NCBI GenBank assembly: GCA_051362555.1
Contig: CM120640.1
Location: forward strand, 21,948,001 to 22,012,000
Direction of reading: 5' to 3'
Length of the DNA: 64,000 nucleotides
Origin: Lingula anatina
Taxonomy: Eukaryota > Animalia > Brachiopoda
In this document: positions 55,501-64,000 of the stretch, piece by piece
How the letters are laid out: every line of letters starts with the position of its first letter
Position numbering within the stretch: the first letter of the stretch is position 1
Made by a program: the position numbers and the translations under genes
Notes under the pieces: model-generated
Databases searched by the model: none
What the model was told of the DNA's origin: nothing
The model's input: the letters and a program-made list of their open reading frames with translations, nothing else

Positions 55501-56392
55501 AAATTATATTTCACAACCATAACAGTAAGTTTAAAAGCTGTGTGGAATTCTTGGACCATTGTACCCCAAGGAATGACATATGCCAAGCATAGAAGAGTAT
55601 GCCAAAAAGAGATTTATATAGATATAGATATAGTTATACTTAGATATATATATACAACAATGGGTGTACAAATAGTTTCAATATACTTGGTGGAATGTGC
55701 TTACTCTGGGGACAGGGATTTCTAACTCACGATACCTAGCATGGATTAATTTGCAAGTATGGTGTCCAATACATTTGAAAATAATAACACACACTACATT
55801 CTATAAAATTCTATCACCTGATATTCCACAAAACTAATGCTGATACAACATTTTAGGTACCAGAATAGCCAAGTAAATGAAGGGAGTTGTAATATGCCTC
55901 CGAATATTTGGGACAGGAATAAATTCACACGACCTGAAGACATAAGCACACTGGAATAATTGGTATTCATGTATTACGTTCATTTTCTTTTCTGAAAAAA
56001 TTTACTGACAACACTATACTGGTTAACATGAAATGGTTCAAATTTTCCCTTTTGCGATTAAATGATAATGATTACAATTGTCAGAATTAAAGACATATAT
56101 ATTTTTACTTTGATTGCACTTAATTGTGGCTAGAGGTACATGTGAGGGCAAGTTAATTTTTCTCAAATATATACAACACTGATTCTCTACCCTTCCCCCC
56201 AACCCACCTCTTGTCAACTTGAACTGCATTATATATTCCCAATTTTCATGTTAGCCCAATGAGTGAATATAAATAGTTCTCTATCTGTACAACTGTCCGT
56301 CCCAGTATATGAGAATTCTATCAACATAATCCCCATGGAGGCCATTCCTCTCCCTCCCACTGTATCTGCCTCTGCCCTGACCATATAGTTAT

Positions 56393-59283
56393 TCAGCACT
56401 GGCAATTGCTAGCCTGCTGGTTTGGTGTTTCTGTAAGTCTGGTGCCTCCTCTTTGGTTGCTGACAATTGTGGGGTCTGAATCCAGACTCTCAGACATTTT
56501 CTCGCAGATGATGTCTACTAGGCGCTCAAAGACTGCCTTCACATTTATGTTCTCCTTGGCAGATGTTTCAAAGAACTCCAGACCTAGAGGAAACAGAAGA
56601 AAAGTGTATCTTTATTGGAAATGATCATTCTTTCCAACCCAAAATGCTATGTAAAAACCAATGCTATGTAACAGCAAATCATGTTTATTCTCATAAAATT
56701 TAGGCTATCGGAACAATTTCTTTGATGGCACAAAGAATGATTTTACATCAAGAGCCTACATCGATATAGCTATAATGAATGTGAGATAGTTGTGTGAAAT
56801 CGTTGAGACAGCAGTCCAACAAATTACATTAGTATTGACAAAGCAGACAAACATTCTCAAATGACAGCAGATGAGCATATTTGAAGGATTTAACATGGGC
56901 TGAGGTTCAATAAATTGTAGCAGCACAGCAGGAGTAGAAAAACCATTGTTACAACAAAGGGAAATATCACAAGAAAAATTGGAGTTTGATTGAACATTGC
57001 AGCTGTTAGGTAGTCATTTACATAATACCATTTAGATGGAACAGGCAGCCATTCTTTCCTAGGGATATGTATACAACATGCAAAAACATAAAGGAACAGT
57101 GTAGGGAATGAACAACACTGTGACTGTCAGTTAGGCAGCATCTCCAGTAACTGAAAATAAACTAGGTTATCATACACCACAACAGAATGGTTTGGGTTAG
57201 TAATAAAACAAGAAAGAACACTTACCATACAGTACATACAACCAGTTAGTCCAAGCAGGGGTTCATAACAGTCACTTAAGTACGTTCATACTTATGTGCA
57301 AACTAAGTCTAAAGCAGTGCGGTGCATACATGCTAAGCCAGGCTACAGAGAACTATGTAAAAGGAATACCATACACCTAAGTCCACTGGGATTATTACAT
57401 TTCTAAGTAAAAAGGCAACATTTCTACACAGGCCCAGTGTAAGATATTTGTTTCCAAAGCACCCTAAAGTAGTGTAATAATGGAAACTTTAAATGTGGTT
57501 ATCAAGGGAGATGTTGCCTTTCTTGTTGGTCATACACAACATAGTCCATTAAACTGTTACAATATATATCATCAGCACTGAACAGTCAAACCTGTCTGAA
57601 TCGATTTAAATAACATCAACCTAAATGTCATGAGATTCTACCCAAAATAATTTGTTTACATAAATTGTGTGCTCTCAAAAAGGTTCAACAAGTGAAAAGT
57701 TACACCTCAAAAATTCAGACATTGTAACAGTTTAATGCATTGTCTGCATCCCATTGTTCCTGACCACTTTGGGATCCCAGTCACCTACCCAGCTGGTCAG
57801 CCAGCTGTTTGCCTCTCTCAGTGGACACTACCCTCTCATCCTCCAGGTCACATTTGTTGCCCACTAAGACCACCTGTGCATTATCCCAGGAATAGGTCTT
57901 GATTTGTGTCACCCTAGATTGAAGAGAGTTAAGATGTGAAACTAAAACAAAATCACACGCACGCCACACATGTGGGAGGAAAAGACCCTTGAAAATGCAC
58001 CACACCAGCACACACTACATTGTCTGTATGCACTAACCACCTGTCTAGAGCCATACCTAGGCGGTGTGCGAGCTGCATTCCTCGCTCAGTTGTGACCACA
58101 CGCTCCTCCTCTAGGTCGCTCTTATTGCCCACTAGGACAACTTGTGCGTTATCCCAAGAGTACATCTTTATTTGTGTGCACCTGGAATGAATAGTTGACA
58201 GCATATGCAGGAAGTTGGGTGCGTCATGACACTACGTCTATCAACCAAACCCAGAAGTGCAGGGGCAAGAGGAACAAAAATACATTTAGTTGCGCATAGG
58301 CAGCTATAGACTTAACTTGTTGACTTCCAATAATAAAAGGCAATAACATGAATTATATTTAAATCCACTTCCTGAATACACTTTGTGATATTCAATCTGT
58401 TTCCTTGCGAGAAAACCAATTTGGCTGTCAAGTAGTCTATGTGATTTATTGATGTGATTTTATTCCTCCCACTGCTGCTCACTGCTTCAAGTGCACTACT
58501 AACTCCACTACAGCATGCCGTGTGCTGCAGCTAGCAGGCTTGCAGAAGCCAGACTAACTATATGGGTAGAGTGGTGTGTTCATTCCTACCTAACTGGTCG
58601 GCAAGTTTTTGACCATGTTTTGTTGTGACATTGCGTTGGTCCTCAAGGTCACATTTGTTGCCAACCAAAATTACTGAAGTGTTAGGCCAGGCATGTGTTT
58701 TAATCTGTGTACACCTGTGTGTCCAACAAAGAAAGACATAATGAAACCAAGAACACAAAATCAAACTAACATAATGGGAATATTAAAGATGTAACACCTT
58801 GATAAAGTAAAGCTGTTAAAGTGTTTACTAACATAAATGATGTAAATGTACAAATTTCTCTTCAGAAAATGATGAAACAAGTAAAGCAATTGAAAAGCCA
58901 CTGCAAAAGAAATAATTATATATAATACTGCAATACTAGTAAATTTGTAAAACTTTGGTGCCACACAATTAACTTCATTTAAATCACTCTTTTATTATCA
59001 AAAGTCAAATTTACTTAAATTTATTATTAAGAAGACTTCCTTTATCAAAATTCTGTTACGACATAATTCAAAAATTCATATCCACTTTGTCAACATTAGT
59101 ATTACTAATATAATTAATTTTAAATACTGATAATTCATATCATAACTGCCATAGTCTATCTTACCAGTCTTGCACAGCATTAAAAGACTCCTCATTGGTG
59201 ACATCATACATGAGGATGAAGCCCATAGCACCTCTGTAGTATGCTGTGGTGATTGTCCTGTATCTCTCCTGGCCTGCTGTGTC
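56393..59283 (-). CDS. RAB3: Ras-related protein Rab-3, 3' coding part. First coding exon not found in the window, presumably beyond 64000.
   Basis: Exon 59283-59165 encodes [40 protein letters not shown]. One 125-nt alternative exon follows. Last exon 56583-56393 encodes [38 protein letters not shown]...SNCQC*, ending in a CXC prenylation motif. Confidence 0.95.
57789..57913 (-). CDS. RAB3: Rab3 alternative exon C (125 nt, canonical type)
   Basis: atctag|G GTG ACA CAA...CAG CTG G|gtaggt. Encodes [41 protein letters not shown]. Confidence 0.92.
58057..58181 (-). CDS. RAB3: Rab3 alternative exon B (125 nt)
   Basis: ttccag|G TGC ACA CAA...CGC CTA G|gtatgg. Encodes [41 protein letters not shown]. 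Confidence 0.88.
58590..58714 (-). CDS. RAB3: Rab3 alternative exon A (125 nt)
   Basis: acacag|G TGT ACA CAG...CAG TTA G|gtagga. Encodes [41 protein letters not shown]. Confidence 0.85.
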
Positions 59284-61685: not shown

Positions 61686-64000
61686 ATGCGCTTCCACTTG
61701 AAGAAAGTTGTGAGGTTTGTCAGCCTGATTATTCTTCTATTTGTGCTGACCCAGCTGCTAAGTTATCAGGAGGAGGTTCTGTCACAGATTAATCCAACGA
61801 TAAATAAAAAAGAAAAAACACAATCCATTTCTGCAGAAAATCTAAACAATAATGACATTATCAATGCTAAGGAGAGATCACACTGCAAAGAACTTGAACC
61901 AATTAATCCTATGATAAGAGAGAGATTTATCTTCCAAAAGGTAAGCTCAAAACCAGACTACTTAGCTTTTTCTGCATTCTACAGTGATCAGCCAGGAGAT
62001 GCATACTTTCTAAGGATCATTGGAATAGGACGATATTTAAACAACAGGTTGGACAAGTCTGTGCCTTACCCACAGTACTGTCAACTGTGGTTCCAGAAGA
62101 AAGATGGAAACACCGTGAAGGTCTACAATGAAGTGGTGCCCACTGTGGTACAAATTATGCCAGAACAGAAGTCAAAAAAGTAAGTAAATTTTCTATTTGA
62201 ACATCTTAGTCCAAACTTTTATATCAATGTCAGTTTCCATTTTACACTTATAGCCAATGTAAAATGAACCAAATTTCAATGCGTGTGTTTCCAATTAAAT
62301 TGTACTAAGACTCTCTACATCTATATTGGACTTTATAGTTACCTATAACATAATGAAATAACATGATTTCAGTGCATGCTTATTAGCTGAAAAAGACCAA
62401 TTTACACATGATATGAGATACATAACTAAAATGCAGCACTACTAAATTATAATTAAAAATATTGCAACCCTTTATTATCATCCAGATACCCAAAAATGAG
62501 GTTTTTCCTGCATCTAATTATTTCATAATCCATCTATCTTTGTGCTGATTTAAAACAATAAAAATATAAAATATTGGCATTTATATTTGTCATTGCAATG
62601 TATAAGCATAGGCAACTAAAAGCTTTAAACTCAATTTAACATATGTCTATTTTGAGGTGAGATATCAATCGGTATGGGGCGTAACTTCCTCCCTGGACAA
62701 GATTTTATCACGAAAATTGGCAGAGTTGACCAGAAGTGTATAAGTTACAATCTCGTGCTGTTATTTTGGTTTAAATGTTTTTGTTAAGCCTCTAATTACA
62801 GATTTTCATCAAACAAAGGCTTTATTTTGCTTTATCAATGATAAAATGTGAACTAAGAATTTCAACAAAAATCAATGGCAGAGTTTAAGACTGCATTCCC
62901 ACATATTTTAGATCAATCTATCTCCGTGGGAACTCACTACATTACTGTCAGCTTAGCCGGCTTAAATGTCTGTCTCCCCTACTAAAATCTGTAAGGGGGT
63001 AATTAACTTCCGTGTGCACTCAGCTGACATCAATTTAGCTTGAACCCCCAGGGAGTTAGGTTGATCCAGATGGATTGATCTAAATCTGTGGGAATGCAGT
63101 CTTAGAGTACTTAATGGTATCATTAAATTGGCGTTAAAACAGTGATCGTGCTGCATAGGTAAAAGAGAAATATGAGAAACCAATTTTTCAGTCTTTATCC
63201 CAAAATCAAAAATATGACATCACCCTTAAGTTGACATATGTGCGAATGTTAATTAATTTAGTCACTGAACACTGAAGATTTATTTATTGCCCAAAAGAAT
63301 GTATGTAAGGTAGTAAATAAGGAGTTTTGGGTGAAGGATGACAGTATCCTTAATTAATTTAGTCACTGAACACTGAAGATATATCTTTTACCCTAAAGAA
63401 TGTATGTAAGGCAGTAAATAAGAAGTTTTGGGCAAAGGGTGACAATATCCTTAAAAATCATTTTATGAAATGTTTTTTCTAATCATGTGGTAAGTATTAT
63501 ATATATAAAATATAGACCAGGCTTTGACCACAGCTAGTTCATCTGTTAAATTGCCTCCTCAGAATAATGCAATTTCCTTCCACTAACATTAATCAACTCT
63601 GTTGGCAGCAGTTTTTAGATGAGGAAATGTTAACATCACAAATATCTGGAGTGAAACAAAAAGGAAATATTAACATCACAAGTATTTGGAGTGAAACAAA
63701 AATTTAAACCTAAAACCTGTTCACAAATTATCTAATGAGTTACATGTAGTGTTCATTTTGTAGATTTTCCAAAAAATCCAACTGATGACAATACATCTGA
63801 AAATAATTTCTGTATATTTTTCAGGTACCATCCCGTTCTTTACTTATGCTATGGCCCAAAGAATTACAAACTGAAAACAGTTCCATATGCTGTGTCTCTT
63901 GTGGACAGTAAATGCAAGAAGCCACTCAATTTCCTTAAGGTTGTCAATACCAAAGAAGAAGCAAAAGGAAAAACACAACTAGATTTCGGGGTTTGTGTCA
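61686..64000 (+). CDS. Type II membrane glycosyltransferase family 92 (DUF23/GALT-1-like), 5' part, running off the window
   Basis: Exon 61686-62179 has an N-terminal TM anchor, then LAFSAFYSD, LRIIGIG, YCQLWF and MPEQ. It splices in phase to 63825-64000+ (KYHPVLYLC...VPYAVSLVDSKCKKPLNFLKV...DFGVCV), a pattern typical of invertebrate GT92 N-terminal regions. Confidence 0.75.
63249..63454. repeat. Tandem duplication, 101-bp period
   Basis: TTAATTAATTTAGTCACTGAACACTGAAGAT...GACA.TATCC occurs twice. A further ~39-bp duplication lies at about 63630-63700. Confidence 0.85.

Follow-up and report, generated by a model that had tools for sequence, protein, structure and literature searches.

Three tandem homologous versions of one Rab3 exon in the brachiopod Lingula anatina

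Rab3 is a switch protein for neurotransmitter and secretion release, and is among the most conserved presynaptic proteins. Vertebrates possess several Rab3 proteins per animal (RAB3A-D; PDB 1zbd, 3rab, 8a4c, 6y7g and 2gf9), as the locus described here might, having acquired them by gene duplication and not by exon duplication. Exons that are homologous and mutually exclusive form a well-documented class, and a human catalogue (PMC8373072) places RAB6A, RAB37 and RAB28 among the genes with duplicated exons. A different exon is swapped in each, namely the switch II exon in RAB6A, the P-loop/switch I exon in RAB37 and a C-terminal exon in RAB28. The string "rab3" occurs at five places in the table of that catalogue, and both of the two places shown refer to RAB37; the excerpt of bioRxiv 2024.05.14.592021 contained nothing on RAB6A exons. 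For the three-exon cluster of Drosophila 14-3-3zeta, a downstream docking site is reported (PMC6071210). The known clusters (PMC8373072, PMC6071210) are old, lie in tandem, have exons of equal length and phase, contribute one exon per mRNA and combine a conserved core with variable surface residues. The Rab3 array shares these features and differs in belonging to another gene and, as far as seen, in being found in spiralians only.

The DNA analysed (the window) was a 64,000-nt stretch of the Lingula anatina genome, in which the Rab3 exons lie on the minus strand. The constitutive upstream exon (59165..59283; 119 nt, phase 2 out) carries the DTAGQE motif and runs from switch II to the start of helix alpha3. 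It is followed by alternative exon A (58590..58714), of THAW type, exon B (58057..58181), of KMYSW type, and exon C (57789..57913), the canonical TYSW type and the default. The last coding exon (56393..56583), delimited by sequence and RNA depth, contains the ETSAK motif, helix alpha5, a C-terminal CQC and the stop codon, and the 3' UTR extends below 56393. The first-pass annotation had placed, downstream of the DTAGQE exon and ahead of the last one, three paralogous exons of 125 nt each, bounded by AG and GT and free of stops; all of its coordinates and all of these properties proved correct. In equal length, phase and intact splice sites, A, B and C have the character of tandem homologous exons. 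They are separated by introns of 408 nt (A-B) and 143 nt (B-C), and a 52-nt AG-free stretch precedes the acceptor of exon A. Nucleotide identity is 74/125 between A and B, 77/125 between A and C and 91/125 between B and C, and A and B differ from C at 14 and 8 of 41 residues, respectively. A profile HMM built from 142 Rab3 exon peptides picked out three copies in the window, at 74-90 bits, with no further match above 3 bits; a motif scan found no 5' exons of the gene within the window. The Rab3 gene of Lingula anatina thus has three tandem homologous versions of one exon.

Among solved structures the best matches were nine Rab3 chains (E 1e-113 to 5e-94), followed by Rab8A (4e-66), so that Rab3 stood ahead of Rab8, Rab10 and Rab27; exon A alone matched only Rab3 chains at E<=1e-5. 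The exon A peptide was 100% identical to Rab-3 isoform X2 of Lingula anatina (XP_013381633.1). Given this identity and the structure matches, the window holds the 3' part of the brachiopod Rab3 gene. RefSeq isoform X1 has exon C and is otherwise identical to X2. Exon C is also present in isoform X4, and exon B was absent from X1, X2 and X4, the three records compared; RefSeq X-isoforms are automated models. No description of this exon array was found among the titles and abstract openings surveyed, and the passages covered in PMC9282427, PMC9741552 and bioRxiv 591974 did not mention it. The suggestion that such an array is undescribed for Rab3 therefore holds for the papers surveyed and fails for databases, since automated RefSeq isoforms already contain the exon types. 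What is new here is the read support for exon B, its sample-dependent use and the match of all three types in abalone.

It had been proposed that inclusion of zero, two or three copies breaks the reading frame and that only single-copy transcripts are productive. Translation of each combination bore this out: with one copy the frame ran for 144 residues and ended at the normal stop; without any, it ended 13 nt into the last exon; and with two or three, stops appeared 114-239 nt ahead of the last junction. Exclusivity would thus be enforced at least by the reading frame. Transcripts with double inclusions carry early stops and should be removed by nonsense-mediated decay, and the single gene could then yield up to three Rab3 proteins of the same length. 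The differences between B and C were, as claimed, largely synonymous (15 codons identical, 18 synonymous and 8 non-synonymous). Values of pN/pS, left uncorrected because synonymous sites were saturated, were 0.25/1.00 for A-B, 0.23/0.96 for A-C and 0.13/0.77 for B-C. With pN well below pS at saturated sites, the duplications appear to be old and the proteins constrained. The alternatives are also conserved between species under purifying selection, and the exon cluster is very likely functional.

Reads were taken from four of nine Lingula anatina RNA runs (X1, X2, X4 and X7, from three studies), with 6-25% of each run read and 34-248 reads placed per run. A joint was listed only if it was covered by at least 3 reads at 2 starts. 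In runs X1, X2, X4 and X7, respectively, upstream-to-C joints numbered 13, 9, 1 and 17 and C-to-last joints 6, 14, 3 and 15, so that exon C was joined on both sides in all four. Joints from the upstream exon to B numbered 0, 0, 2 and 5 (a row flagged "between: not known"), and B-to-last joints 0, 0, 0 and 16. All four joint types fell at the predicted bases after the cuts had been shifted as recorded. The listings for the four runs contained no joint between two alternatives (A-B, B-C or A-C) and none that skipped them all, at a low depth compatible with rare double inclusions. One of B or C is present per mature mRNA.

The use of B depended on the sample. Exon B accounted for about half of the joints in run X7 and was absent from X1 and X2; by distinct read starts the B:C ratio was 17:22 in X7 and 0:32 in X1 and X2 together (Fisher p 7e-6). 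Run X7 was also fixed for other bases at four 3' UTR positions (56210, 56211, 56255 and 56388; region 56210-56516), which runs X1, X2 and X4 lacked where these positions were covered. This suggests that X7 was drawn from another population carrying the same species name, and genotype could contribute to its use of B. Run X4, however, has the reference base at 56388 and includes B nonetheless, a point in favour of control by tissue or stage. In run X1 the 3' half of exon B was covered to a depth of up to 7 and the B-C intron to a depth of 2 (57912-58232), with no B joint at either end; this may reflect unspliced or intron-retaining RNA. Within the DTAGQE exon, reads from at least two other Rab paralogues cross-map at 59221-59256, which explains the apparent variants at 59230-59244.

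For exon A no joint was listed in the four runs at the fraction read. Depth over A was 1-3 in runs X2 and X7 and continued into the adjoining introns, and may be due to unspliced RNA. The junction mapping proposed earlier (upstream exon to A, B or C to last exon) thus succeeded on both sides for B and C and returned nothing for A. Likewise, of three isoforms predicted from one gene, single inclusion of B and C is seen in RNA, and A is represented by a RefSeq model and by conservation. Lingula might accordingly use only B and C, with A a recently silenced relic that is still used in molluscs, a reading suggested by the lack of a listed A joint in four runs from three studies. We regard it as very unlikely, because A retains an intact AG/GT pair, the AG-free stretch and an open frame, its pN is far below its pS, RefSeq models an A isoform for this species, and the RNA covers only 6-25% of each of four of nine runs.

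The reading preferred is that of an old three-exon Rab3 cluster in which B and C are spliced singly, A likely so too, and the resulting proteins likely differ in partner binding; taken together we hold this to be probable. Comparison with other animals was made through their Rab-3 records. Orthologues of the array, with the same exon types at the same position, are present in RefSeq and GenBank Rab-3 isoforms from Haliotis rufescens (X1-X3), from oysters, scallops, limpets and a chiton, and from Tubulanus, Lineus, Watersipora and Lingula. In Haliotis rufescens, X1 is of C type, X2 of B type and X3 of A type. Isoform pairs from the same species were identical outside the swapped exon in all ten cases checked (nine species). 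Named A-type records came from a chiton, limpets, abalones, caenogastropods, Gigantopelta, oysters and scallops and, beyond molluscs, from the nemertean Tubulanus and the bryozoan Watersipora, and were all lophotrochozoan; B-type exons were seen in Lineus and Watersipora. Among the 120 proteins listed of 452, 15 were of A type, 2 were fused A+C, 100 were of C type and 3 were other. No A- or B-type exon appeared among the arthropod, deuterostome and cnidarian rows, in which clustering at 90% hides isoforms. In all, 29 clusters were opened at that level, one of them deuterostome, with 13/13 members of C type. Neither Octopus nor the pulmonate isoforms compared had a typical A or B exon. One Logan record (P0161) holds an uninterrupted full-length A-type ORF, which would imply a spliced A mRNA in some animal.

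At the genomic level, contig L005 carries 125-nt AG/GT exons of type B and then C, in the same order as the window, and the interval from its upstream exon to B lacks an A. Single copies of the exon were found in 8-11 other Rab3 loci (L008, L010-L013, L015, L016 and others), several of them truncated, and the metagenome scan (13 of 64 parts) returned no locus with a THAW exon. Two bdelloid-like loci (L002, 10000-10382; L004, 10000-10377) have two 125-nt exons, KMYSW followed by TH[SC]W, an order that is the reverse of the A-before-B of Lingula, and Rotaria magnacalcarata records use either rotifer exon (P0302, P0312). In rotifers, Seison and an acanthocephalan it is a B-like exon that serves as the main one, which would fit a loss of C in these animals. 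Several gene models of snails and rotifers (P0004, P0005, P0062, P0064 and P0068) fuse two alternative exons by way of invented splice sites, and these are likely annotation errors caused by the exon cluster. Doubled segments in Ancylostoma, fish and human records (P0063, P0149-P0152) were rejected as exon clusters because the duplication extends to the flanking exons, and are put down to artefacts of gene models or cDNA. Separately, the corresponding exon of Physella acuta Rab-3 isoform X2 (P0190) is a strongly diverged alternative of 40 residues, in whose NKxD motif S replaces N; it may be an A exon that evolves rapidly in pulmonate snails and has altered nucleotide binding.

An exon tree was computed from 54 rows and 41 columns. 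One branch (83/72) set the 14 A rows apart and another (87/81) the six B rows, neither of them starred; the B side also included the main rotifer, Seison and acanthocephalan exon, and the assignment to B depends for the most part on a single Met. Topologies were compared by AU tests on 31 of the 54 rows, with identical and long-branch rows (e.g. Physella X2) omitted. These rejected a clade of Lingula A+B+C (p 0.0098), and with it a Lingula-only origin of the array, as well as a clade of Haliotis A+B+C (p 0.0006). A grouping of A with the downstream rotifer exon had a support of 77 and was neither shown nor rejected by the AU test. It could be argued that the duplications occurred independently in several lineages and that the shared motifs are convergent, since the A and B branches of so short an alignment are not starred and the bdelloid pair, in its other order, may be a separate event. 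This we consider highly improbable, given that species-wise clades are rejected for both Lingula and Haliotis and that the exon order agrees in Lingula (A-B-C), L005 (B-C) and the fused snail models P0004 and P0005 (A-C).

Lophotrochozoan phyla separated in the early Cambrian or earlier. The simplest reading of the sequence comparisons is that two duplications preceded this separation and were followed by losses; they would have taken place before brachiopods, molluscs, nemerteans and bryozoans parted. The triplication had first been taken as a property of this animal, which did not stand: the array is common to at least one gastropod and appears ancestral to lophotrochozoans. Mean pairwise identity was 65% among A rows, 75% among B rows and 98% among C rows (lophotrochozoan rows compared), and T-H-A-W, GNKCD and other core residues were invariant in all 14 A rows. 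We infer that C remained the almost invariant default and that B and A became minor alternatives restricted to certain tissues or stages.

The swapped exon encodes the end of alpha3, the alpha3-beta5 loop, the guanine-binding NKxD motif and alpha4, as assigned from PMC4552854 and general Rab knowledge. RAB6A/A' had been put forward as the precedent. The analogy holds, as human RAB6A/A', RAB37 and RAB28 are likewise Rab GTPases diversified by the swap of a duplicated exon, but the exon swapped in RAB6A is another one, and the Rab3 array, unlike all three, swaps alpha3-beta5/NKxD/alpha4 in three versions. A RAB6A/A'-type event for Rab3 was discarded because switch II is encoded by the constitutive exon upstream. 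All isoforms share switch I, switch II and the prenylated C-terminal tail, which lie outside the swapped exon, so all should bind GTP and the same membranes. The alpha3-beta5 loop is CDR2 of the effector pocket, WDN124-126 in fly Rab3 (PMC4552854), and the CDRs form a second rabphilin site, contacted by the SGAWFF motif of rabphilin (PMC9308819).

Exon A differs from C at 14 positions (fly numbering), including Y122H, S123A, D125P, A127T, Q128S, E141Q and E147K; its net charge is +1 as against -2, and the charge of alpha4 is reversed. In A-type exons Y-S-W-D is replaced by H-A-W-P/S, and H-A occupies the same two positions in Rab8A and Sec4, so that A resembles a Rab3 with a Rab8-like start of the loop. 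Exon B differs from C at 8 positions, including T121M, C136S, K150M, D154H and Q155R, and keeps WDN; it is likely a subtler variant with the WDN pocket retained. Vertebrate and fly chains in the alignments keep TYSWDN and none resembles A, and on these alignments the array does not appear to be a copy of the differences among vertebrate RAB3A-D. A single-sequence AlphaFold model of isoform A (mean pLDDT 40) was set aside. The chances are about even that A would bind effectors of the rabphilin/RIM type, or other regulators, with altered affinity.

The change in the loop could be of little consequence: fly WDN124-126AAA fully rescues the rab3 active-zone phenotype with no synaptic defect (PMC4552854), and in cnidarian Rab3 the CDR2 Asp is naturally replaced by S or A. 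On this basis the exons could be exclusive and A, perhaps also B, a low-level variant with no distinct partner preference, under selection for foldability only. Such an interpretation would suit the full function of the triple-alanine mutant at the fly synapse, the lack of a listed A joint in the four runs, the much faster divergence of A than of C, and the lineages that appear to keep a single exon. However, the A-specific H-A pair is invariant in 14/14 A rows from four phyla, which foldability does not demand, and B makes up about half of the joints in run X7; we judge the interpretation unlikely. A more far-reaching proposal is that of a pre-Cambrian spiralian switch, extending from rotifers to molluscs and brachiopods, with a Rab8/Sec4-like A form and a B form that are restricted to cell types and engage different effectors. 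This is tentative and on balance doubtful. If it were true, it would point to a split between cell types, e.g. neurons and gland or mantle cells, one gene would achieve through splicing the diversity that vertebrates reached with four, and molluscan synapse research over several decades would have dealt with only one of three Rab3 proteins.

The preferred reading of an old cluster with likely differences in partner binding has consequences of its own. The splicing arrangement itself is well known, and the isoforms are already present, unremarked, in automated annotations. Exon C, as the 98% identity indicates, belongs to a strongly conserved protein, and a three-way swap of the CDR2 loop within it amounts to a natural experiment on the debated role of CDR2 in effector choice. 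Studies of Rab3 in the neurons and secretory tissues of molluscs may have confounded its isoforms or overlooked some of them.

The basis of the exclusive splicing was sought in the introns. Steric exclusion by very short introns appears unlikely from their lengths of 408 and 143 nt and from the branch-like words near the acceptors. Long-range RNA pairing was scored for six intron pairs, and only the upstream-A intron with the C-to-last intron, both in AT-rich sequence, exceeded 25/25 shuffles. A weak candidate docking element lies in the C-to-last intron (57299..57327, minus strand) and could pair with 58016-57995 in the B-C intron or 58319-58303 in the A-B intron. This candidate was chosen post hoc, and 13/300 shuffles were as good by a summed statistic and 50/300 by a stricter one. 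In the other loci compared, which include no close relatives, 48/100 (L005), 24/100 (L002) and 87/100 (L004) shuffles were as good, and a 9-mer shared with L005 was at chance level (166/200). In contrast to the docking-selector clusters of 14-3-3zeta, Mhc and MRP1, pairing in the Rab3 array thus amounts to a weak candidate. A perfect 17-nt inverted repeat (57547-57563 and 57721-57737, 157 nt apart) begins approximately 50 nt downstream of the exon C donor. The long upstream intron contains a MITE-like pair of 23-nt inverted repeats 173 nt apart (62886-63104), and tandem duplications of 101 nt (63249-63450; 89% identical) and 40 nt (63622-63701).
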